A DNA stretch of 64,000 nucleotides from a virus. Under the pieces are notes generated by a model. The model was not told where the DNA came from. It did no database searches and worked only from the letters and a program-made list of their open reading frames with translations. A program made the position numbers and the translations under genes. The stretch lies in the IMG/VR virus record IMGVR_UViG_3300033141_003979, positions 32,001 through 96,000 of that record. One strand, given 5' to 3'. Below are positions 3,320 through 16,119 of the stretch, one piece after another (position 1 is the first letter of the stretch; each line of letters begins with the position of its first letter).

Positions 3320-5314
3320 TTATTTCTTTACCCAAAAAAATGATGGAGAAGATTCATCTGTCACAAATAAATCCTTAATCCCATGAACCCGCACATAAAT
3401 ATTTACTGCATCAACAACACCTCCAACAGCTCCTCTAGTTGAAACCCAATTAAAATAATCATGCCCTGAAATTATCCCTCCTATACGAACCTTCTTTGAC
3501 CATTCAATAAGATCTTGCATTACATAATCAAATGTATGATTCCCATCAATATAAACAAAATCAAGTGATTCTGGTTCTACTTCTTTGATAGCATCCATAC
3601 TTTTCTTTACAATAAATTGAACATCATAAGGTTTAAGTATTTTCTTAGCATGATTATAAAAAGAATTATGGTTTACATCAGAAATTTCAACTTCATCTTC
3701 TCCATAACTAATATATGGATCAACAAGTTTTAATGATAAACCCGGAATATGTTTGCATATTGCTAATGCATTTATCCCACGCTTCACCCCTATTTCTGCT
3801 CCGTACTTAAATCCAAGTTCATTAAACAATGAATACAAATATCTTCTTCTATACTTCCTCACCTTTATTGGTGATATTGCCTTCCTTGATATACTACCTC
3901 GCTTTCTAAAAATAAATCGTAAATTATTCTCTCCCTCTGCCATCCCCCAATGCCGTTCAGTATCCATTACAATCCTCTCTAACCAGTGAACTTTGTATTT
4001 TTCATCAAGCACCGCCTTAATAAAAAAGAAATCTCCTGCATTTTGACGACCAAAACTTTTAATATGTTTTTGAAATACTTCATTCGAAACACAGATATTT
4101 CCACAAGCAATCCTCCCTCCAACAGGAATATGGGTTTCCCAAACATCTTTTTTTGGGTAAATAACATTTTTTATCAACTTCTTAACCATAACAACATCAA
4201 CATGAGAAGCTGATACAAGTTCTTTAACTGAAGCTACAAAATCTTTGTCTATTATGACAGAATCGTCATCTACTAAATAAACATACCTCCCTTTAACTTT
4301 GCTTCGATTAACATAAAATTGTTTATTCGCCCATCCAATACCTCTCCCTATATCATCTACTATAAATATGTGTTCAAAATCTTTATCTGTTTGAGCATTA
4401 ATAGAATCAATGCATTTCTGTAATGCTTTAGGTCTCTTGTAACATCTTGTAACAAAAGACATAAATGGAATTTCGGGAGCTTGTTTTTGTTCTGCCTGTT
4501 TATTTATATCTTTCACCATTGTATTCTCCCAAGAAGGCACCGGAGCAAATTTATCTACCAACCACTGTAAGGAGTGTTTATATCCATGACTATTTCCCGA
4601 CCAAAACTTCAAAGCAAACTCCGCAGATTTTCGCTTCTCCCCCCTGACATCTCTATAAAGTCCCGTGTCCTTCGCCCAATGGGCATACCAAGTATTGCGA
4701 TTGAGCACATACCGGCCACCAGAAAGCCAAGTCTTCAAACATACTTCCTGAGCTTCTTTGCCCATCGCCCCGTAGTTGACTTCATCCAATCCTCCAAGTT
4801 CCCAAAACCTTTCTCTATGCATGAACCAACAGGAGCCTTGAGAGGTCATCAAATCAACTATTGTCTGTCCTACTACCCGATCAGCATATTCATGCCAGTC
4901 CTTTCCTTTAAGATCCGTCTGCCTGATATACTGAAACTCATAACTTTTGTCTTCTCTTTCCCATAATTTAACATTCAATCTATATCTAACCGGAACTACA
5001 GTCCAATCATATTCACAGTTTTCAATTAACTTTATATCAAATCCCTCATCAAAAGAACAATGAGCATCACATTTCATCAAATACTTGCCCTTAGCAATCC
5101 TTGCCCCGGCATTTATCGCTTGTCGCATTCCTTCTGTTTCAGAGAAATGGACTAATGTAACATTCGGGAAGTCTCTTACCGGCGGATCAGGCCAGTAGCC
5201 ATCCAACATAACAATAACTTCAACAGCTCCTTTGGCCTTAACCAAAAGATCATCAATTGTCCTTTGCAAATATGGATCATTCCGCGCCGGTATTATGACA
5301 GACGTTATTTCCAT
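3320..5314 (-). CDS. Tri-domain GT2-GT-class I SAM methyltransferase fusion
   Basis: TSVIIPARND...KCDAHC (GT2), a second GT-A domain with YLVDDD, and a C-terminal GAEIGVKRG...DFVYIDGNHTFDYV...GGIISGHDY (Methyltransf_24-like). Start set at ATG 5314 (TAATG overlap). Confidence 0.85.
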   Translation of the reverse strand: MEITSVIIPARNDPYLQRTIDDLLVKAKGAVEVIVMLDGYWPDPPVRDFPNVTLVHFSETEGMRQAINAGARIAKGKYLMKCDAHCSFDEGFDIKLIENCEYDWTVVPVRYRLNVKLWEREDKSYEFQYIRQTDLKGKDWHEYADRVVGQTIVDLMTSQGSCWFMHRERFWELGGLDEVNYGAMGKEAQEVCLKTWLSGGRYVLNRNTWYAHWAKDTGLYRDVRGEKRKSAEFALKFWSGNSHGYKHSLQWLVDKFAPVPSWENTMVKDINKQAEQKQAPEIPFMSFVTRCYKRPKALQKCIDSINAQTDKDFEHIFIVDDIGRGIGWANKQFYVNRSKVKGRYVYLVDDDSVIIDKDFVASVKELVSASHVDVVMVKKLIKNVIYPKKDVWETHIPVGGRIACGNICVSNEVFQKHIKSFGRQNAGDFFFIKAVLDEKYKVHWLERIVMDTERHWGMAEGENNLRFIFRKRGSISRKAISPIKVRKYRRRYLYSLFNELGFKYGAEIGVKRGINALAICKHIPGLSLKLVDPYISYGEDEVEISDVNHNSFYNHAKKILKPYDVQFIVKKSMDAIKEVEPESLDFVYIDGNHTFDYVMQDLIEWSKKVRIGGIISGHDYFNWVSTRGAVGGVVDAVNIYVRVHGIKDLFVTDESSPSFFWVKK

Positions 5315-5613
5315 TATCTCCACTTCGGATGTACGGTAAAATTTATAGTCCTGCAAAGCCCCTTAAAACCACCATCTGGAAACTCAAAGTACCCCTGAAC
5401 ATAATATTCCCCTGCAACATCCAGATCACCGGCCCCTGTAACATATCTCAAATACTTTTCTTCATATACTGTAGAAGCCCATTCTACTTCAACCCCATTC
5501 TTGAGAACTTTCATTGAATAAACAGTGGCAGTATCAAGGGTAACATCTGCATTTACCTTTATTGTTATTTCGACATTTTCATCATCTACATATATTCTGT
5601 CATCAATATTCAT
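5314..5613 (-). CDS. Small virion protein, BppU-N-like beta domain
   Basis: YVTGAGDLDVAGEYYVQ motif typical of BppU-like adaptor domains; translationally coupled at both ends. Confidence 0.5.
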   Translation of the reverse strand: MNIDDRIYVDDENVEITIKVNADVTLDTATVYSMKVLKNGVEVEWASTVYEEKYLRYVTGAGDLDVAGEYYVQGYFEFPDGGFKGLCRTINFTVHPKWR

Positions 5614-7166
5614 ATTCCCCTCGATTCAAGAGCCATTCCTATTTCAAAGGACATACTTGTTTTCAAAGAAGTTTCCAAACTTATACTCTTCAATATTCCC
5701 ATCGACGGCGATGGCGATGCAGATATTGAAGGGCTCACTGAAGCTGAAATTGAAGTGCTCGGACTCAGTGATGGCGATAAACTCGGTGATAAACTCTGTG
5801 AAACCGAAGGACTCACACTTAACGATATGCTTGCTGATGGAGAAATTGAAGCTGAGATTGATGCCGAAAGGCTCGGGCTCAAACTTGCTGATGGGCTAAT
5901 TGATGGACTAATTGACAGGCTCACCGATGGAGACAGACTTGCCGATGGACTGATACTTGGGCTGATACTTGGGCTGATACTTGGAGAAATACTTGGACTC
6001 AACGACGCCGAAGGTGAAATCGACGGGCTCAGGCTCTGTGAAATACTTAGTGATATACTTGGGCTCTCTGAAGCAGACGGACTCACTGATGCTGATAGAG
6101 ACAAGCTTATTGACAGACTTATGCTTGGAGAAATGCTTGCCGAAGAGCTGACAGACGGCGAAATTGATAAGCTGATTGAAGGGCTGATTGATAGTGAAAT
6201 AGATGGTGAAATTGATGGGCTAACAGATGGGGAAACGCTAGCAGATAAACTTGACGAAATGGATGAACTTAAACTAGCAGACGGTGACGGCGATGCAGAT
6301 ATTGAAGGGCTCAATGAAGCTGAAGGACTAACAGAAGACGATGGAGATGGAGAAATCGAAGGACTAATTGATGGTGACAAACTTGCTGATGGGCTAATAG
6401 ACGCCGAGATCGATGGACTGATTGAAAGACTGATTGAAGGTGATATGCTTGGGCTCGCTGATGAAGAAATTGATGAAGAAATTGATGGACTAACAGAAGC
6501 CGAAATTGATGGACTGATCGACGGGCTTATGCTCGCCGACGGGCTAACAGATGGGGAAACTGATAGTGAAATGCTTGGACTAATTGAAGGCGATGGAGTA
6601 TGCAATTCCATAGTCCAATCATCTATATCCAACTGAATATCATCAATACCAATAATAAGAGTTTCTAGGTTTTCATCAGAGTTGGTAATACCAGGCTGAA
6701 GTGCTTTAGGTATTCTTGTTGCTGTAACCAATGGTCCAATTTCCTCGATTGTATTTCCCTCAGCATTAAATTCAGCAACAAGATTAGGAATATCATATTT
6801 ATTTTCTAAGCGATACCATGTATTTTCATTAATAGTAAACGTAGAAGTAACATGAAAGTCCCCGCCTTCGGCGTCATCATAAAACTCAGATCTAAGCTTG
6901 AATACCCCACCATCATTTTCACAAACAAAATAAGTTACAGGATCTCCATTTACATCAACTTGCTTGCCAAAATGAAAAGAGTTTCCTATACTGAGAACCC
7001 CAGTATAAAGCTTAAACTCCAAATACACATAAGATGTAAGTGTCGATACACGTATAGCTTGACGACTCCCAGCAGGCTCAGTTGCAGGCAAAGATATTTC
7101 TAAGTAATCTCCCCCCTGATTGCTTAATGGCGCAGTCCTGCAATTTGCATTGTAAGTAACAGCCAT
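5610..7166 (-). CDS. Putative virion protein: lectin/LamG-like N-domain plus ~300-aa Ser-Pro-Ser-X tract
   Basis: Beta-rich N-terminus (NTWYRLE...IIGIDDIQL), then [11 protein letters not shown] repeats. Start at ATG 7166 (TAATG overlap). Confidence 0.7.
   Translation of the reverse strand: MAVTYNANCRTAPLSNQGGDYLEISLPATEPAGSRQAIRVSTLTSYVYLEFKLYTGVLSIGNSFHFGKQVDVNGDPVTYFVCENDGGVFKLRSEFYDDAEGGDFHVTSTFTINENTWYRLENKYDIPNLVAEFNAEGNTIEEIGPLVTATRIPKALQPGITNSDENLETLIIGIDDIQLDIDDWTMELHTPSPSISPSISLSVSPSVSPSASISPSISPSISASVSPSISSSISSSASPSISPSISLSISPSISASISPSASLSPSISPSISPSPSSSVSPSASLSPSISASPSPSASLSSSISSSLSASVSPSVSPSISPSISLSISPSISLSISPSVSSSASISPSISLSISLSLSASVSPSASESPSISLSISQSLSPSISPSASLSPSISPSISPSISPSISPSASLSPSVSLSISPSISPSASLSPSLSASISASISPSASISLSVSPSVSQSLSPSLSPSLSPSTSISASVSPSISASPSPSMGILKSISLETSLKTSMSFEIGMALESRGI
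5700..6600 (-). repeat. Degenerate 12-nt-period coding repeat encoding (S-P/A/L-S-I/A/V/L)n
   Basis: Serine at every second residue; DNA units are synonymously diverged. Confidence 0.9.
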
Positions 7167-10100
7167 TATGGTATATCTTCCCAATAAGATTGATCTGTGT
7201 TATCACTATCCCAATCATCGTCAACCGCAGCATCGGGATCAAAAGTTTCACTAATGACGCGAGATTCAAAAGAAAAATCCATCGTCATTAGACCCATGAA
7301 CTCTGGATCTGGAGGTTCATCTGGAATCCCATCACTCTCAGTTGCATTATTAACAACAGCTCCAAGTCTTTCGCAAATCTCAACCTTCCATTTTTCTTCA
7401 CTATTTAGAATCTGAATATGAGCGAATGAAATCAAACGGATTGGATCTGATAAGTAATCATGATTCGCTGCCATGCCAGCATGATAATAGGACCGGTATC
7501 CACCAACCCTATACTGCCTACAACTAATAATCGAAGCATGTCTACCTAGTGGGGATGCACCAATATTAGGCCACCCATCATCTGCATGACTACCATCATC
7601 GAGGAACCCACAGTGACGATCACCTCCAAGTCCTATACCATTATGGGCTAACCATTGACGCACATTATACTCCCTAGCCGCACATCTCCGCCAAAAATCT
7701 GGCTTATAGATCTGAATAGTGGTTGATTCAGCAGGGATAACATCATCGACCTCTACTTTCTTTTCCCCAGCGTTCCAATACCAAACCTGTTCATTTCCAT
7801 CTATCTCATCTGCACTGAATACTTCCTCCATGACCGTTCTTGAAGCGGTGATAAGAGAGTTATCACGAGCTACAGCCCCAGGCTTTAAAGCACCCCCATC
7901 TGAATTCAAAAAGGGTTTGCGTGACCTCATCCTGGTGCCATCTACATCGTCAATGGCTTCCCATTGCGTATCCCCAACTCCTATTTCATCTAACAGTTCA
8001 ATCCAGAAACACATCCCGTCATAATCGCACCATTTATCACCCTGCCCGGCCTCTCCGTGAAAAATGGGTGTTTCTGATACAAGACAATAGTAATCAATAT
8101 TGGGGTCTGTTCGATCTGTAAATATATCTTCAACAAACGTCCTGAAGATATGACCTGCATTTATAGCCTCTTCTGGAGTACTATGTATTGAACTACCAGA
8201 TTCGTAGAAGTACATGAAGTGATTAGCCTCAACGGTATCATCATTACAAGTCTCCCAAGCAATTTTGACATAAGTATCTGTGACTTCTTCGACTAGAAAA
8301 TGCCCAACAACATCACCTTCACCATCAGCAGCCGTTCTAACCTCAACCATATCCCATCTATTGACAAAGGAAGTAAGGTCGCCTGTGTAGTTAAATATAT
8401 TATGAGTGTCAACAGAATCAATTTCCATTGAATCCTGATCATCTACTGTATTACCACCAACCAACGGCTTACTCAGTTGATTGATCACCAGCCCATAAGC
8501 AATAGTATCTAATTTACACCCCCCGAAAGTCCAATTTGGATCTCGCTTGTGGCGAATGTCAATAACGATAAACCTGATATTATCCATATCAAAGGTGTGG
8601 CAAAGTGAAGCTCGTTGAACAAGGTATCTAATATTTTCAGTTGTAGAGAAATCTTTTCCATCTGATAATGCTTGACAAAAATGGATAGTAGTTCCGCCTA
8701 TATATTTTACAAATGAATATTCACAAACAGACTCATCTGTTTCGTCCAAATACCTAATACATTGACCAGGATAAAGACCATACTTTGAAACTGTTGGAAA
8801 TCCGTAACTACCGTCTATTGTAGCCTCTGCGCTACTATCATCACCAATTACAACTTCATCATCTGACGGATAAGAGCCAGAAGTGTATTCAATTACAAGC
8901 TGATATGTACCTGTCCCATCCTGTCTTTCGTCGTGCAGTAATGTACCAACCCCATCTATCCCCCATGTCACGCCCTCTCCCTGTGTTAAATTCCCTGTAT
9001 AAGCATCATAAGTAATTTGAAACTCAGGTGGACTTGTATCAACTAAGGTAACATCAGATCCATCTGTATGTGCCCCCTCATAATTATTCCCCATATGAAG
9101 ATCTGGAAGCGGAGTCATTTCTTTGTAAACTCTCAGCGCAGTAGGAACCATATAAGCGTTTAAGGCATCGTCATAATTGCCACCACCTACACAATTAGCG
9201 TTATTTACAAGAAAATCATGGTCTGAAAATATATGGGCAGCAGGATACTTATTATATAATTCAAACTGTTGCCAGTAATTAGATAGCTGTGAACCTCGCC
9301 TTTCATAGACTATATTTCGTATAACTTGTGCTTCGTCTACAGTAGCTATCTCCGGCGATATACTCCATTCATCTCCAAGCTTCCAAACAAGATCAGGAGT
9401 TTTAGCAGACATTGAGGTAAAGACATTGTGGTCTTGCTCCTGGTGATGTTCGTCAGCACCAGCAGCAACAACCATGTCACTTCGAGTACCTGGAGCTTGG
9501 AATGTCTTACAACTTGGAAGAGTACTCCAGTAATAGGCACTTGCCCCACCCTCAAGTTCATACGCCGATTGCCAGCACCCATTCTTTTGTTCAACAAGAA
9601 TATCATAATAGTATGTTTTATTTGCAGTGAGACCTGTTATGGGAACGATTGCCGTGAAGTCTTTGGAATAGCCCTTTGGATCTGTAGCGGTTATTGCCGT
9701 GGCAGAACTTGTGTCGGTGTCTCCTGAATTGGTTTTTACGTCTCCCTCTACCGTACCATATCGTATTCTTACACTACTGGCTTCACTAATTCGTAGCCAT
9801 ATTCTAAGTTCTGTCGAAGACACACAGGCAACTAGCGGCTCATGTGTGACAAAGGCATCTCCTGTTGCCCCACTTATCACTTCTGCATAACAATCAGATA
9901 TTCTATATCCAGAAAAATCTTGCGCACTAGCTCGTATATATCCATAAGCTTCTTTTATTTGCGCCCACGACCAAGCACCATCCCCTTCTGGGTCATTTAC
10001 GGCAAGGAAATAAAAATCTGCCCATACCGCATCTCCAACTTCCCCTCCTGGACTGAACCCACTTGATTTCGGGGTGCTTGCTACTCCAAGACCTTCCTTG

Positions 10101-11998
10101 CGAATAAACGGCACACATTCGTAATGACTAGTATCATATTGCTGACCCCGCCAAAATACCCTTTTAGCTTTTGGGTCTCCCAATGTCTCATCAGGATCTT
10201 CAAAGGCAAGAAGCATTCCCGATCTGTCTGTAGAGTCGTCACTTTCTTTTTTAACTTCAACGAAGGTAAGATCACTGCTATCAGTCACAACCTCTAGTGC
10301 CCCTTCAGCATCGTCTATCCAATCGGCTGCCGTCTCCCACGTACCCGCAGCGATCATTACATTGTCTATATAAAGTTTTCGGGCGCTAACACCTAATTGT
10401 TGTAAGTTTGTAATAGAGCCACCAAAATAAAGTTTATCGAGGGTTTTTGATGCACCTTCATCCGCCTCCTGTACGGCTCCTACAACCCCATTATCCGTAA
10501 ATCGCCATCCGCAGGTGTTTGTCCCTTTACGATAAAACTCAACCCTATGCCATTCACCCGTAGCAAAAGCTACGTCGTTTCCTACTTGAACTCCATTATG
10601 TTCAAGATATATCTTCCCATCAATTGTGGTGATAACTTCTATATACTCAGAATCATCAGCGATGCGACACTGAAAAATTATTTTCTCATTATGTGTCGTT
10701 GCAAAATTGAGATAAAGCCGAAATGAACCAATTATATCAGCTGTATCAAAATTCCCATCATATTTCAGTCTTGAACGGGCTACAATGTCATCCTTATACT
10801 CAAACTCGCAGTATGTGCCAGAGCGTCCTCCGATACCAGAAGCATCTGCATCTATAGAAGAGTTAGAGCCTACGACAGAAGGAACATAAACAACATTTGA
10901 ATTGTCTGTATGTCCAGTAATATCTACGCCAGGGAGGAGGTTTATATCGGCTTCCTCAAAAGACTCCCTGAATATAATTTTATTCCCATTGGTAGGCACA
11001 TAGCCGGGGAGAACTCGTTCATCTGCTCCACCGCCAAGCCACTCGTTAGGTTCAAGAATTTGTTTTCTACAACCAAAGGTTACAAACGTTTTTCCACCAC
11101 CAGACATTATGGCTTCTTCATAAAAAGGTGAAGGACTCGGTGAAACACTAGGACTAAGTGATAGACTGATTGACGGGGATAGGCTTAGTGATATAGACGG
11201 ACTCAAACTTGCCGATGGACTAATTGATGGCGACATACTTGGTGAAATACTCAAACTAATTGATGAAGATATACTAGCTGACAGGCTCAATGACGGCGAT
11301 ATACTTGCACTAATTGATGGTGATATACTTGGACTTGGTGAACCTAGGAGGGCATTTAAGGCTATTTGATAGCCATGCCATTCTGCACCAGTAACATGCC
11401 CATCATAATCAACCGTACCAGAATACGTGTCTATATTTGCTTGTGCTTTAGATCCCATGCAGATATTACCATCCTGCCTGAATACTGCCTCGTGAGTTGT
11501 AGAGCCAGCCTCTACGGTTACATCGGCATCTGTAGCTGCTGCATTAGTCAACGCAGTAGCTACAATAATCAAAGTATCAGTTTCTGTTGTTGTTATATCA
11601 CTACATGTTGCAGTACCAGCAGCATCTATAGTATCATCGCTCTTCGCAGATGAAACATCAATAAGATCCCCTTGTCTTGTTCCTTCTATTCGGAGAATAG
11701 CCCCTCCCCAACCTCCTTGCCCACTCAAACCTGTCCAAGTATAGTTTGCCCCTTCACCTGAAGCACTAGTAATATACTTATAACAAATTACTGAAGATAA
11801 ATCTCTACCAGTAGTGGTATTCTGTTGATAGAGTTGTGTCCATCCTACCGGTATGCCAATTGCTGGAGTATCATCTCCCCTCGAAACACAGGCAATCAGT
11901 AAATCGTTGTCTTGCAGATCAGCAGGTTTATTTATAACAAAACTAGCGGCGGCAACAGTATCATTTTGTGTACTAGTTTTATATTCTGGAGATGCCAT
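7166..11998 (-). CDS. 1610-aa mosaic protein: N-terminal beta domain, Ser-Pro tract, LamG-like domain, PhoD-like metallophosphatase with insertions
   Basis: DFTAIVPITGLTANKTYYY (PhoD N-domain), PDLVWKLGD, IFSDHDFLVNN, FIVIDIRHKRD, GGDRHCG. Confidence 0.7.
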   Translation of the reverse strand: MASPEYKTSTQNDTVAAASFVINKPADLQDNDLLIACVSRGDDTPAIGIPVGWTQLYQQNTTTGRDLSSVICYKYITSASGEGANYTWTGLSGQGGWGGAILRIEGTRQGDLIDVSSAKSDDTIDAAGTATCSDITTTETDTLIIVATALTNAAATDADVTVEAGSTTHEAVFRQDGNICMGSKAQANIDTYSGTVDYDGHVTGAEWHGYQIALNALLGSPSPSISPSISASISPSLSLSASISSSISLSISPSMSPSISPSASLSPSISLSLSPSISLSLSPSVSPSPSPFYEEAIMSGGGKTFVTFGCRKQILEPNEWLGGGADERVLPGYVPTNGNKIIFRESFEEADINLLPGVDITGHTDNSNVVYVPSVVGSNSSIDADASGIGGRSGTYCEFEYKDDIVARSRLKYDGNFDTADIIGSFRLYLNFATTHNEKIIFQCRIADDSEYIEVITTIDGKIYLEHNGVQVGNDVAFATGEWHRVEFYRKGTNTCGWRFTDNGVVGAVQEADEGASKTLDKLYFGGSITNLQQLGVSARKLYIDNVMIAAGTWETAADWIDDAEGALEVVTDSSDLTFVEVKKESDDSTDRSGMLLAFEDPDETLGDPKAKRVFWRGQQYDTSHYECVPFIRKEGLGVASTPKSSGFSPGGEVGDAVWADFYFLAVNDPEGDGAWSWAQIKEAYGYIRASAQDFSGYRISDCYAEVISGATGDAFVTHEPLVACVSSTELRIWLRISEASSVRIRYGTVEGDVKTNSGDTDTSSATAITATDPKGYSKDFTAIVPITGLTANKTYYYDILVEQKNGCWQSAYELEGGASAYYWSTLPSCKTFQAPGTRSDMVVAAGADEHHQEQDHNVFTSMSAKTPDLVWKLGDEWSISPEIATVDEAQVIRNIVYERRGSQLSNYWQQFELYNKYPAAHIFSDHDFLVNNANCVGGGNYDDALNAYMVPTALRVYKEMTPLPDLHMGNNYEGAHTDGSDVTLVDTSPPEFQITYDAYTGNLTQGEGVTWGIDGVGTLLHDERQDGTGTYQLVIEYTSGSYPSDDEVVIGDDSSAEATIDGSYGFPTVSKYGLYPGQCIRYLDETDESVCEYSFVKYIGGTTIHFCQALSDGKDFSTTENIRYLVQRASLCHTFDMDNIRFIVIDIRHKRDPNWTFGGCKLDTIAYGLVINQLSKPLVGGNTVDDQDSMEIDSVDTHNIFNYTGDLTSFVNRWDMVEVRTAADGEGDVVGHFLVEEVTDTYVKIAWETCNDDTVEANHFMYFYESGSSIHSTPEEAINAGHIFRTFVEDIFTDRTDPNIDYYCLVSETPIFHGEAGQGDKWCDYDGMCFWIELLDEIGVGDTQWEAIDDVDGTRMRSRKPFLNSDGGALKPGAVARDNSLITASRTVMEEVFSADEIDGNEQVWYWNAGEKKVEVDDVIPAESTTIQIYKPDFWRRCAAREYNVRQWLAHNGIGLGGDRHCGFLDDGSHADDGWPNIGASPLGRHASIISCRQYRVGGYRSYYHAGMAANHDYLSDPIRLISFAHIQILNSEEKWKVEICERLGAVVNNATESDGIPDEPPDPEFMGLMTMDFSFESRVISETFDPDAAVDDDWDSDNTDQSYWEDIP
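11125..11345 (-). repeat. Ser-Pro-Ser-X coding repeat
   Basis: [21 protein letters not shown]... tract of about 70 aa. Confidence 0.9.
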
Positions 11999-13573: not shown

Positions 13574-15421
13574 TTATAAAGTAGAAGTCATTTTAACTTG
13601 AACATATCCCAAAGATACAAATGGTATAGTATAATTATTCCATCCAGCTCCTTCACAGGCTACTTTTGTTGCTCCGTGTCTATAATCCATATCCACGTCA
13701 TCCCCTGTAGGATCATAATTATTTTGCAATAATGTCACAGTAAAGGCGCCTGTGTTAACTACTTCAGACACCATATTTTCCCCTGCATTCAATTCAAGCC
13801 GTTCAGCATCACCAGCATTCGCTATTACCCCAGTCCCTGTCCAATGCCAAGCAAATGTACGTACATTTGTCTCAGTCACAGCTGTAACATGTCCCCAACA
13901 AGTATCCCCAGGTATTGCAGGTGAAGGAGATGGGGATATTGAAGGGCTAACTGAAGGCGATAAAGATGGACTCAATGACGGTGATATACTAGGTGAAATG
14001 CTCGGGCTGATTGAGGCTGAAGGACTATATGATGCAGAGATACTTAGTGAAATGCTCAAGCTTATTGATGGGCTTATACTCGCACTTGGACTGATTGAAG
14101 GACTTAGGCTTGCACTCAGACTCGGCGATAAAGATGGTGAAATTGAAGCTGAAGGAGTAGATGGAGAATATGATGGGCTTATACTTGCCGATGGACTATA
14201 TGATGCCGATGGAGACGAAGAAATCGAAGCCGAAATCGAAGCCGAAGGGGTATCTGGTGATGGACTTGGTGATGGTGAAATCGATGGACTAATTGATGGT
14301 GAAATTGACAAACTAATTGATGGTGAAATGCTTGCAGATGGGCTTAATGATGGACTGATTGATGCCGACAATGACGGGCTTTCTTCCACAAACTCACTTG
14401 CCCCTACATCCCATCTAGCATCCGTACCAGCAGGCCTGGCATTTCCTTCTATACTAAAAGCATAAAGTGGATCAGGGGTAGTAAAGAAATTCATAGGGTT
14501 CCATGTGCCAGAAACATCATTAACTGGCGACATGCCGCAATTGCCCTCACCTAAATTATCGACACCATCCCTAGTAGATAGACTGGCCGTAGCTAAGTAA
14601 TCAGCATCTAGTGAGGCGTCCAAATCCAAACTGTTATCCCATGCAGTAGGAATTCCTCCAGCATCTAAGTCCGCTGTATCATCGTCAGCAGCGTTCCAAT
14701 CCGAAGGTACATCAATATCAACAGCAGGAAATACATCTCCCCCTATGTCCATTCCATAGCAACTAAAAATAATACCTGTGCCATCTGTTAGAGAAGAATA
14801 AAATCCTGCACCACAATCTGCCCCAGTACAACAAATACAGCCCATTGTATATCCTGCGGCCGGAGAGAATCTAAAAGCAAGATCCTCATGCCCATAGGAG
14901 ATACAAGCATAGGCCATACTGTCTTCACCAAACATCCGAAACCCCTGCGGATTTCCACCAGAAGAAACTCCATCATAGGCAATACAATGTATAAAAAACA
15001 CGAAGTCTGCGTCTTCACATCTGAAAATATGAGCACCTGTCGAACCAGTATAACTAGCACTTATTTTAACAATTCTACTATAGAAATCCTTAACTTCAAA
15101 AACAAAAACATTTGCTCCTGTATAAACAAACGTAGCTCCAGTTGCTACAGTACCAGCAAAAGGAGTAGCACAACTTGGTGAGGATTGAATCTTTCTATAG
15201 TGTGTTGCATCTACAATAGCATCTTGGAGTGCGACAGAATCATCATGTACTTGGCTATCATAGCAGTCGAGCACAAGAATACCAAGACCGGTGATATCTA
15301 CATCTGTATCAGCTTCCCAAGTGCCTAAAACACTATAATCTGGATCTCCAGCGCCAGGCAACGAACCGTTGCCTCCAGAATCATAGGTTCAAAGATATGG
15401 TGCTTGATCCCAACAAGCCAT
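13574..15421 (-). CDS. Putative virion protein (beta-helix-like domain plus Ser-Pro tract) with in-frame UGA at codon 11; candidate selenoprotein or readthrough product (615 aa)
   Basis: ATG 15421 overlaps the upstream stop (TAATG). Translation MACWDQAPYL*TYDSGGNGSLPGAGDPDY is in frame with the track ORF 13574..15361, which starts at TTG. Confidence 0.65.
13915..14380 (-). repeat. Ser-Pro-Ser-X coding repeat
   Basis: About 150 aa of alternating Ser. Confidence 0.9.
15333..15391 (-). promoter_or_regulatory. UGA plus SECIS-like stem-loop
   Basis: UGA (15391-15389), 14 nt, then AGGCAAC-GGUUC-GUUGCCU (15374-15356). A lower helix CUAUGAU-UCUGG / CCAGAUUAUAG is possible. Confidence 0.55.
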
Positions 15422-16119
15422 TAGCTAATAAGCCCCTTTTTTGGTTCTAACATATTCAGCCCATCAAAAGCGCTAACAATGCGACCCTTAAGTTTATCCC
15501 AGAAATCAGTCTTACCAAGAGATCTGGACACCGCAGGAGTATAAACATCGTGCCTGTCAAACATCCTTACGGTGTTGACCCCTAGTGTGTCTAAATCAGC
15601 AAGGGGCACACAGAACCTACGTTTTTTAATAATATCCGTTGGATTCGCACCAATATCCCACGATCCCGTTATATCGTAGTAAGGCTCGCATAAGGCTTCT
15701 ATCTTTGGACGATCTAAGTCGGTCACGGGGACAATTAAAAAATGCCTTCTTTCTAGATTGGTCCACCCATGACCCTCTGCTTTATGAGCAATAATATCTC
15801 CGGGTCGTGGCCTTTTGTCGGTCTTCATATCTTCGTGAACAGAATATAGGTTAGGGTCAAATCCTGTTGGATAATCAATACTTTTGCTAACAAGTTTATT
15901 TATAAGGACAGAACCAGCTTTAGCAATATCTGGCGTTAATTTGTTATAGGGGCCGTTCGCATAGCCTTTGCCATCAGCGCATGGAAAGTTCTTGTCGTAA
16001 TAATATGGCTCGCCATTCCAGCCATGAGCGACAACAGGGAAATGATCTGTCAGGCTTTTCTCCTTCATAAGATAACGATTTTTATAGTAAGCAAATAAAG
16101 CTAATTCAAAGTTAGCCAT
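15421..16119 (-). CDS. Hypothetical phage protein
   Basis: 232-aa ORF with a GAGAGGA RBS, inside the operon. Confidence 0.7.
   Translation of the reverse strand: MANFELALFAYYKNRYLMKEKSLTDHFPVVAHGWNGEPYYYDKNFPCADGKGYANGPYNKLTPDIAKAGSVLINKLVSKSIDYPTGFDPNLYSVHEDMKTDKRPRPGDIIAHKAEGHGWTNLERRHFLIVPVTDLDRPKIEALCEPYYDITGSWDIGANPTDIIKKRRFCVPLADLDTLGVNTVRMFDRHDVYTPAVSRSLGKTDFWDKLKGRIVSAFDGLNMLEPKKGLIS

Follow-up and report, generated by a model that had tools for sequence, protein, structure and literature searches.

Bacterial selenoprotein genes, of which E. coli fdhF is the prototype, carry an in-frame UGA that aligns with Cys in homologues, as in the TGA/Cys-pair families described by Zhang and Gladyshev (PMC1976440). 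A stem-loop with a G in its apical loop, the in-ORF SECIS that SelB reads, lies shortly downstream of the UGA (PMC4607533), Sec and Cys have been interchanged repeatedly and a partner Cys is found nearby. By the published computational criteria, a new family of bacterial selenoproteins is recognized from TGA/Cys pairs, at least two different TGA sequences and a stem-loop directly downstream whose apical loop has a conserved G (PMC1976440; PMC4607533). Besides those of cells, selenoproteins are known from two poxviruses (molluscum contagiosum and fowlpox viruses), whose glutathione peroxidases are the only viral selenoproteins in the 2021 review of viral recoding (PMC8310308). In these virus genes UGA is redefined as Sec by the host machinery, and the fowlpox gene has its SECIS within the coding sequence. 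No selenoprotein from a virus of bacteria is described in that review, in the 2025 deep-Sep paper or in the 2026 BSepDB database paper.

The locus analyzed here shares with bacterial selenoprotein genes all the features listed above, yet it differs from them in being located in a phage genome, in encoding a putative virion beta-helix protein rather than a redox enzyme, and in having its proposed Sec as early as codon 11, just 30 nt from the start, and in a C-x7-U spacing. Unlike them, it also comes without any encoded Sec machinery and would depend on a host that has not been identified. The poxvirus genes belong to eukaryotic viruses and are captured cellular enzymes with a eukaryotic SECIS, whereas the present gene belongs to a bacterial virus, has a bacterial-type hairpin and is part of a structural family without any cellular selenoprotein relative. 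We consider it likely that UGA codon 11 of this 615-residue beta-helix gene, starting at ATG 15421, is decoded as Sec by host SelB and tRNA-Sec with the help of an in-ORF SECIS, although no read, RNA or protein evidence is at hand and the host is unknown.

Organization of the gene

The window, i.e., the whole stretch of 64,000 nt that was analyzed, belongs to the 110-kb genome of an uncultured phage, of which an exact-flank pattern search found no second copy. Read through the UGA, the full gene (13574..15421, minus strand, like all features below) consists of 615 codons and a TAA stop, i.e., a 10-codon leader, Sec11 and 604 further codons, an extent that is based on the translation and on homologues that align from residue 1. 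Its ATG (15419..15421) overlaps the stop of an upstream 232-aa gene of unknown family (15421..16119). This TAATG junction, which the initial annotation interpreted as translational coupling and which also occurs at 7166 and 5314, is indeed present, and an xTAATG junction is found in most relatives as well. Also as first described, leader codons 2-10 (ACWDQAPYL, 15392..15418) are followed by the in-frame TGA (15389..15391), the proposed selenocysteine codon, in the frame of the ORF that translation table 11 starts at TTG 15361. This TTG (Leu21, 15359..15361) is a possible re-initiation codon, not conserved, within the 3' arm of the hairpin described below.

We propose that ribosomes coupled from the upstream gene would start at the TAATG junction and that the hairpin located 14 nt 3' of the UGA (5-8 bp, GG(U) apical loop) would act as an in-ORF bacterial SECIS, recruiting host SelB.GTP.Sec-tRNA(Sec) to the UGA. 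The Cys3-x7-Cys11 pair of relatives would thereby be replaced by Cys3-x7-Sec11, which most likely would form a selenylsulfide (or bind metal) in the cap at the N-terminal end of the beta-helix. That the inserted residue is Sec and that SelB binds to the hairpin is inferred, as is the chemistry proposed for the pair.

Codon 11 in related phage genes

An alignment-based scan of IMG/VR found relatives of the gene, a single-sequence pattern scan of the same resource having given none. A TGA-specific DNA pattern search yielded no loci beyond those already known, and cultured phages contained no match to the gene in either megablast or tblastn. The homologues, which belong to uncultured phages, are tailspike-like beta-helix proteins and share the N-terminus MACYDxxPYxC-TYDSGGxGSLPGGG. 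The window protein reads MACWDQAPYL-UGA-TYDSGGNGSLPGAG and its UGA consequently sits on a conserved Cys. The initial annotation proposed tabulating codon 11 across relatives, and the outcome bore out its suspicion: 14 distinct DNA sequences carry TGT or TGC and 12 carry TGA, while TGG, TAA and TAG are absent. Among 31 protein representatives, codon 11 corresponds to Cys and to no other residue. This is the classic selenoprotein signature. The 12 TGA sequences are the window, L003, L004, L009, L012, L013, L039, L044, L053, L055, L056 and L057; DNA behind shortened gene calls (P0015, P0016, P0035, P0036, P0048 and others) is not included in these counts.

The 11 TGA sequences other than the window originate from at least 8 other samples, and the window protein is 35-45% identical to the four TGA-form relatives that were compared with it (L003, L004 and L012/L013). 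Terminal branches of the tree measure 0.7-2 substitutions per site, and one clade consisting only of TGA forms has 96% support. TGA and Cys forms are interleaved; parsimony requires 7 changes, of which supported branches force at least 2. The TGA forms are thus diverse as well as old. Ten of the other TGA forms remain open over 330 codons downstream of the TGA, and L056 does so over the 171 codons up to the end of its fetched DNA.

Conservation was observed on both flanks of the alternating codon. Cys3, Asp5 and aromatic residues at positions 4 and 9 are present in 12/12 TGA sequences and Pro8 in 11/12. The leader together with residues 12-15 shows synonymous variation and is conserved to the same degree in the TGA and Cys groups, and the conservation in the TGA group extends over residues 12-20 (TYDSGGxGS). 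The suggestion that the UGA encodes a functional residue, made initially because Cys3 lies nearby, gains weight from the finding that Cys3 and Cys/Sec11 are always either both present or both absent. TGA/Cys pairing, at least two TGA sequences, coding conservation on both sides and a downstream stem-loop with G are thus all found in this family. Given the position of the UGA on a conserved Cys and the occurrence of the same UGA and hairpin in at least 11 diverged phage relatives, the codon is most likely read as selenocysteine.

A hairpin downstream of the UGA

The perfect stem AGGCAAC-GGUUC-GUUGCCU reported initially was recovered at 15356..15374, beginning exactly 14 nt 3' of the UGA and lying within the G-G-N-G-S-L-P codons. 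This SECIS-like hairpin has a 7-8 bp stem and a GGUUC loop, and the 23-nt hairpin folds at -11.7 kcal/mol as compared to -4.8 kcal/mol for synonymous-codon shuffles (p = 0.002). A local hairpin occupies the same place in all 11 long-form TGA sequences (-7.6 to -13.8 kcal/mol), 9 of which beat their synonymous-codon shuffles at p < 0.05 (Fisher 5.5e-12). Stems of 5-8 bp beginning approximately 14-17 nt 3' of the UGA are found in 11/12 TGA sequences, and the GG of the Gly19 codon, in or beside the apical loop, is invariant. In L004, the sole TGA sequence of the short form, the apical stem is weak and only 3 bp long. The hairpin was observed to covary beyond the codon-level null: 76% of cells pair vs 64% in shuffles (0/500), and the covariation score is 0.314 vs 0.154 in shuffles (0/500), with its best value at slide 0. 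The pair between the wobble positions of codons Gly17 and Leu21 is found as GC, UA, CG and AU.

Whether this hairpin is linked to TGA, as the initial annotation implied, received a mixed answer. The mean energy is lower in the long-form TGA sequences than in Cys forms (-11.0 vs -6.6 kcal/mol, Mann-Whitney p = 0.0017), but only 2 phylogenetically independent contrasts are available and the test consequently has no power. The hairpin is not confined to TGA forms, as the Cys form L011 has a hairpin identical to that of the window, a strong hairpin is also present in the Cys form L006, and L040 and L059, two Cys sequences of the short form, are more stable than their own nulls. Cys forms pair nearly as well when the register is fixed (72%), and the pairing potential is partly built into the Gly-Gly...Leu-Pro codons. 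The 11-bp helix that had also been proposed is able to form in the window, but it lacks covariation and is no better than shuffles; with 66% of cells pairing in TGA relatives and 65% in Cys relatives, it is a by-product of the conserved YDS...DYS codons and not a conserved element. Folding of the 111-nt region was ordinary (z = -0.78), and so was that of the 39-nt region, against shuffles or synonymous nulls. None of the Rfam families matched the region, and a SECIS hit was absent even at E <= 10; bacterial SECIS elements are poorly captured by common models (PMC12013277).

Alternative readings of the UGA

Four other explanations were weighed against decoding as Sec. UGA is the leakiest stop codon of bacteria, and the phage protein Qbeta A1 is made by UGA readthrough. 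By analogy, a near-cognate tRNA (Trp, Cys or Arg) could be accepted at low frequency, perhaps aided by the hairpin, in a selenium-independent programmed readthrough that sets the amount of full-length protein and does not serve to insert a particular residue. The lack of any host for which Sec machinery has been shown and the occurrence of hairpins in Cys forms leave room for this explanation, which we nevertheless regard as unlikely. TGG would be expected if the identity of the residue were unimportant or if Trp were inserted, yet the 26 distinct DNA sequences contain only TGA, TGT or TGC, the protein representatives contain only Cys and the partner Cys3 is invariant. Such readthrough would also leave nearly all product as a 10-residue peptide. 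The resemblance to Qbeta A1 lies in a phage structural protein produced through a UGA. However, A1 carries a C-terminal extension of the coat protein in which the inserted Trp is unimportant, while the present UGA stands close to the N-terminus, where relatives have a conserved Cys, and TGG is never found in its place. Quite unlikely, too, is that the coupled 10-codon ORF merely encodes a leader peptide whose translation opens a hairpin hiding GGAGG and TTG 15361, the protein then being re-initiated at Leu21. The window does contain GGAGG 10 nt before the TTG with both inside the hairpin, and the family members P0002, P0010 and P0012 are devoid of the Cys-pair leader, hence the beta-helix can work without it. 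However, the idea that homologues start at the TTG position did not survive the comparison, since position 21 is a start codon in only 2/12 TGA sequences (the window and L055). In the others the first in-frame ATG, GTG or TTG after the TGA is found at codon 26, 31, 32, 43 or 51 or is absent, L039 having none within 120 codons; a conserved restart at Leu21 was therefore rejected. Moreover, the conserved residues 12-20 would be missing from a protein started at Leu21, and the residues conserved in the leader are those that are also conserved in the fused N-terminus of the Cys forms.

A nonsense mutation, pseudogene or assembly error in one genome is conceivable insofar as a single base change converts TGT or TGC to TGA, but it is highly improbable: eleven independent assemblies with the same TGA, all open downstream and with a conserved leader, rule out the sequencing error or recent nonsense mutation that the initial annotation had left possible. 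Phages with recoded stop codons exist, and TGA could in principle be a sense codon in the code of the phage or of its host (table 4 or 25). We hold this to be barely tenable. TGA was observed to act as a standard stop elsewhere in the genome, terminating 32/108 long ORFs, including the portal and MuF-like genes, and the code is thus standard; a TGA-sense code was rejected on these grounds and on the dense coding under table 11 (89%). Furthermore, no suppressor tRNA was found in the genome, and the residue aligned with the UGA is Cys, not Trp or Gly.

The protein as a putative virion spike

The AF2 model of the protein (pLDDT 84.5, pTM 0.90) contains only beta structure, built from short, repeated strands. 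Together with Foldseek and homologue annotation, it predicts a right-handed beta-helix domain at approximately residues 40-340 (14402..15304). The translation reveals a Ser-x-Ser-Pro repeat linker at residues 348-503 (13913..14380), and a C-terminal domain of approximately 110 aa (13577..13912) belongs to no known family. The best Foldseek matches are PL9 rhamnogalacturonan and pectate lyases, a fucoidan lyase and phage depolymerases, all of them weak; the top PDB and BFVD matches are without exception beta-helix lyases or phage spikes (E >= 1.6e-3). PF13229 is recorded on two homologues and clusters of the protein atlas carry Beta_helix/NosD/DUF1565. The gene is located within a virion gene block, where it adjoins a gene for a GP4 gp80-like fibre protein. 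From this fold and position, the protein is predicted to be a virion-associated beta-helix of the tailspike/depolymerase type. It shares its predicted fold and its place in the virion gene block with the right-handed beta-helix tailspikes and depolymerases (pectate-lyase superfamily, PF13229), but unlike them it has no Pfam or PHROG family match of its own and only weak structural matches (best E = 1.6e-3). Two of its features, the N-terminal MACYD..C/U cap and the Ser-Pro repeat tail, belong to the present family alone.

Host and possible significance

Neither tRNA-Sec nor selB nor selD was found in the phage or in four relatives (records G000-G004). In the absence of Sec machinery encoded by the phage, decoding as Sec must depend on an unidentified host. 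A scan of genome contigs for this host returned only a distant match in a Saccharimonadales MAG, without the leader, and no host sequence flanks the 'provirus' record G003. Relatives of the capsid and portal proteins are scattered over many phyla, and the best named matches of a PseB-like gene come from mixed taxa and share only about 50% identity with it. Just one named carrier of a homologue, in the Cys form, is available, a 6-kb contig of a Smithella sp. MAG.

If Sec at codon 11 is confirmed, phages would exploit the host machinery for the 21st amino acid to make a virion protein, and their fitness would be tied to selenium and to a Sec trait that is patchily distributed. The C-x7-U pair would then represent a non-enzymatic, probably structural role for Sec. 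One could imagine that a Cys3-Sec11 selenylsulfide staple caps the virion spike, that assembly and infectivity need the host Sec machinery and selenium, and that habitat or host decides whether a lineage switches to the Sec or to the Cys form; this scenario is possible but remains doubtful. If it were true, the staple would withstand reduction better than a disulfide. The Sec/Cys state could, if Sec is confirmed, also mark the host range of uncultured phages. Samples in which two or more distinct family members were found contain either only TGA forms or only Cys forms. Confirmation would finally expose a systematic annotation error in the family, whose public gene calls start within the conserved N-terminus (MPGGG..., MLSTWE... 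or MATWE...), apparently because the UGA was taken as a stop.

Gene layout and relatives of the protein

The ATG at 15421-15419 (minus strand) overlaps the stop (TAA) of gene 15421..16119 (232 codons), forming a TAATG junction of the kind that the initial annotation had also placed at 7166 and 5314, where identical junctions are indeed present. The frame opened by this ATG reads MACWDQAPYL, a TGA at 15391-15389, 604 sense codons and a TAA at 13574; the TGA is thus in frame, as had been claimed, with the ORF that translation table 11 starts at TTG 15361, and only the portion from this TTG on (595 aa) is given by the table 11 ORF list. At the other two overlaps (7164-7168 and 5312-5316, minus strand), the list places the starts of the downstream genes further upstream, at TTG 7184 and TTG 5356; translation of both probably begins at the coupled ATGs instead.

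The neighbouring genes form a virion block (portal, MuF-like, major capsid, head-tail adaptor and GP4-gp80-like fibre genes) within a 109,770-bp phage record of IMG/VR with direct terminal repeats, of which the window spans bases 32001-96000. The genetic code of this phage is standard: coding density is 89% under table 11, TGA terminates 32 of 108 long non-overlapping ORFs, those of the portal and MuF-like genes included, and ARAGORN found no tRNA genes in the whole genome. The TGA at codon 11 therefore needs a local explanation. Upstream of the window start, genome positions 9564-10550 (L072:9564-10550, plus strand) encode a PseB-like UDP-GlcNAc 4,6-dehydratase, next to DegT, Gfo/Idh/MocA and MptE-like (Maf-type) genes. 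An identical protein occurs on four contigs, the largest of 109,920 bp, so the phage was assembled more than once.

No relatives of the protein were found among cultured phages. A search of 5.8 billion proteins retrieved 28 homologues to its first 330 residues (33-47% identity), and because most of them begin with MACYDxxPYxC-TYDSGG(xGSLPGGG)xPDYS, the 10-codon "upstream peptide" is the real family N-terminus, with the TGA sitting at a conserved cysteine. An exhaustive profile search put the family at 1074 representatives (clustering at 50% identity), with E <= 1e-30 for 125; among the representatives listed, the Cys pair opens the protein in 31, and neither cysteine is present in 9. One Cys-pair homologue (P0037) carries GAGCGGSGC in place of GSLPGGG and so gains a second pair, C-x4-C, right behind the N-terminal one.

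About 12 gene calls among the best ~70 start within the conserved N-terminus, at MPGGGNPDY, MGSLPGGG, MLSTWE, MLQTWE, MATWE or MGTWE (P0011, P0015, P0016, P0035, P0036, P0048, P0049, P0055, P0058, P0061 and P0066). In readable loci, the internal starts of public gene calls coincide with the next start codon downstream of the TGA: the MATWE call (P0011) is the gene call of locus L004, on the same 46,227-bp contig, and the MLQTWE call (P0055) fits the GVG start after the TGA of L044. Behind such calls there are probably additional TGA forms that gene finders have annotated wrongly, an inference made without reading the DNA of most of them.

Codon 11 and probable translation through the UGA

An alignment-based scan of IMG/VR and JGI metagenomes for the DNA of relatives left 26 distinct N-terminal sequences once duplicates were removed. 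The tabulation of codon 11 that the initial annotation had called for gives TGA in 12 of them (the window, L003, L004, L009, L012, L013, L039, L044, L053, L055, L056 and L057), TGT or TGC in 14, and TGG, TAA or TAG in none of the 26. Cys3 is invariant alongside this alternation, and homologues without the leader (P0002, P0010, P0012, P0013 and L005) are also without both cysteines. Were the UGA a leaky stop read by tRNA-Trp, TGG would be an equivalent codon one step away, yet it is never seen. Since only TGA and TGY alternate, Cys3 is invariant and leaderless homologues lose both cysteines, the sequences point to the expected behaviour of a Cys/Sec pair rather than of a leaky stop. Nor are the TGA forms recent accidents, given their divergence (identity between the window protein and its TGA-form relatives L003, L004 and L012/L013 is 35-45%, and terminal branches of the tree measure 0.7-2 substitutions per site), an all-TGA clade of L003, L009, L012 and L013 with 96% support, and the interleaving of TGA and Cys forms on the tree, with 7 parsimony changes of which at least 2 are forced by well-supported branches.

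All TGA forms remain open downstream, for 330 codons in ten and, in L056, for the 171 codons up to where the retrieved DNA stops. Their leader is conserved (Cys3, Asp5 and aromatic residues at 4 and 9 in 12/12, Pro8 in 11/12) while its codons vary synonymously (GCC/GCT/GCG, TAC/TAT, CCA/CCC/CCT), as in the Cys group, and residues 12-15 (T/S-Y-D-S) are equally conserved in both groups. Re-initiation at a start codon after the TGA would yield a product missing the near-invariant T12, Y13, D14, S15, D28, Y29, W35 and E36. A conserved restart codon was rejected: the next in-frame ATG, GTG or TTG lies at codon 21 in the window and L055 only, at codon 26, 31, 32, 43 or 51 elsewhere, and is absent within 120 codons of L039. 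From these patterns we regard it as very likely that the UGA is decoded. If decoding failed, re-initiation at TTG 15361 could make up part of the loss in the window, as it could in L055, and the earlier idea of a gate tied to host selenium status thus stays open for these two genomes alone.

Wherever at least two distinct family members occur in one sample or project, the codon 11 state is uniform. Three are all TGA (L003/L009 in 3300033145, L012/L013 in 3300033148, L053/L055 in Ga0209013) and two, with three lineages each, are all Cys (L006/L008/L010 in 3300018080, Ga0180431-434; L014/L015/L049 in Ga0172381). Such uniformity is a hint of a link between Sec or Cys state and habitat or host, a reading confounded by relatedness within samples.

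The hairpin downstream of the UGA

The reported AGGCAAC-GGUUC-GUUGCCU hairpin was recovered at 15374-15356 (minus strand), beginning 14 nt after the TGA, as a perfect 7-bp stem with a GGUUC loop (8 bp and a triloop by RNAfold). All 11 long-form TGA sequences (those with the GSLPGGG segment) form a 5-8 bp hairpin of -7.6 to -13.8 kcal/mol (23 nt, codons 16-23), which in 9 of the 11 is more stable than in synonymous shuffles (Fisher 5.5e-12; 1000 shuffles preserving peptide and family codon usage). Mean energy is -11.0 kcal/mol versus -6.6 kcal/mol for the nine Cys sequences of the long form (Mann-Whitney p = 0.0017). At least eight different stems are used (GGCAAC/GUUGCC, GGUAAU/AUUACC, GGUAGC/GCUACC, GGGGCU/AGCCUC, GGGGC/GCCUC, GGGAG/CUCCC, GGGGAG/CUCCCC and GGGAG/CUUCC), pairing in one common register in 76% of cells (shuffles: 64%, 0/500); covariation scores 0.314, compared with 0.154 for shuffles (0/500), all slid registers being worse, and the wobble-base pair Gly17-Leu21 is seen as GC, UA, CG and AU. 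Bacterial SECIS elements have a 5-6 bp apical hairpin a few nt after the UGA and a conserved loop G (PMC4607533; PMC1976440); the family hairpin resembles them in its downstream apical stem and in the invariant GG of the Gly19 codon, in or adjoining the apical loop.

This evidence is real and needs care. Some of the pairing follows from the Gly-Gly...Leu-Pro codons themselves, folding of the wider region is not unusually stable, and the hairpin region has no Rfam match. The lower helix proposed initially did not hold up, as it lacks covariation and pairs equally often in TGA and Cys groups. In the identical register, pairing exceeds that of shuffles in the Cys group too (72%); L011 has a hairpin identical to the window's and L006 a strong one. 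The only TGA member without GSLPGGG, L004, forms a long imperfect hairpin starting at the UGA with an apical stem of just 3 bp (p = 0.05), and L040 and L059, Cys sequences of the short form, are each more stable than their nulls, with L040 folding better than L004. With just two phylogenetically independent TGA/Cys contrasts, the association of TGA with hairpin strength is not established on the tree. Hairpins in some Cys forms fit fossil SECIS elements after recent Sec-to-Cys replacement; they could also be the sign of a second role.

Proposed decoding and novelty

We propose that ribosomes coupled from the upstream gene would start at the TAATG, that host SelB and Sec-tRNA(Sec) would bind the hairpin and decode the UGA at codon 11, and that the product would carry Cys3-x7-Sec11; SelB binding is inferred. 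tRNA-Sec, selB and selD are absent from the window's genome and from the records holding L003, L004, L009 and L012, and the phage supplies no Sec machinery. TGA/Cys alternation, conserved flanks, the lack of a conserved restart and a hairpin beyond the codon-level null support the initial interpretation, and on sequence evidence alone selenocysteine is the probable residue, the unidentified host being the main gap.

Our literature search found no published description of a bacteriophage selenoprotein gene. A 2021 review of viral recoding names only poxvirus glutathione peroxidases as a viral case (PMC8310308), viral sequences were scarce or absent among the selenoprotein families of a metagenomic survey (PMC9402790), and the 2025 deep-Sep and 2026 BSepDB database papers make no mention of phages or viruses. 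By the criteria of the field (PMC1976440), the tailspike-like family qualifies as a new bacterial selenoprotein family. Novelty lies in the phage carrier, the virion beta-helix protein and the codon 11 position, the mechanism itself being that already known from bacteria.

Structure of the protein

The protein has no Pfam or PHROGs match. Residues 1-340, modelled with AlphaFold2 from a 25-sequence alignment with U replaced by C, are predicted to form stacked short beta-strands (pLDDT 84.5, pTM 0.90), with residues 10-13, Sec11 included, making a short strand that precedes the helix. The best PDB matches (PL9 rhamnogalacturonan lyase, pectate lyase Pel9A, fucoidan lyase, phage depolymerases and tailspikes) and BFVD matches, which include pectate-lyase-superfamily phage tail fibres, are weak (E >= 1.6e-3) and uniformly beta-helix; PF13229 is found on two homologues and Beta_helix/NosD/DUF1565 on language-model neighbours. 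We read the protein as a putative glycan-directed spike associated with the virion and bearing a Cys/Sec cap at its N-terminus. The remainder consists of a Ser-x-Ser-Pro repeat of ~155 residues and a C-terminal domain of ~110 residues, the latter belonging to no known family. Long Ser-x-Ser-Pro tracts occur at 13913-14380 (minus strand) and in neighbouring virion genes at 5610, 7166 and 12425. In the record of L009, an ORF (L071:7687-9045, plus strand) with an intein/Hint splicing domain (Pfam E = 1e-11) adjoins a terminase RNaseH-like domain and the portal gene; it probably represents an intein in that phage's large terminase.
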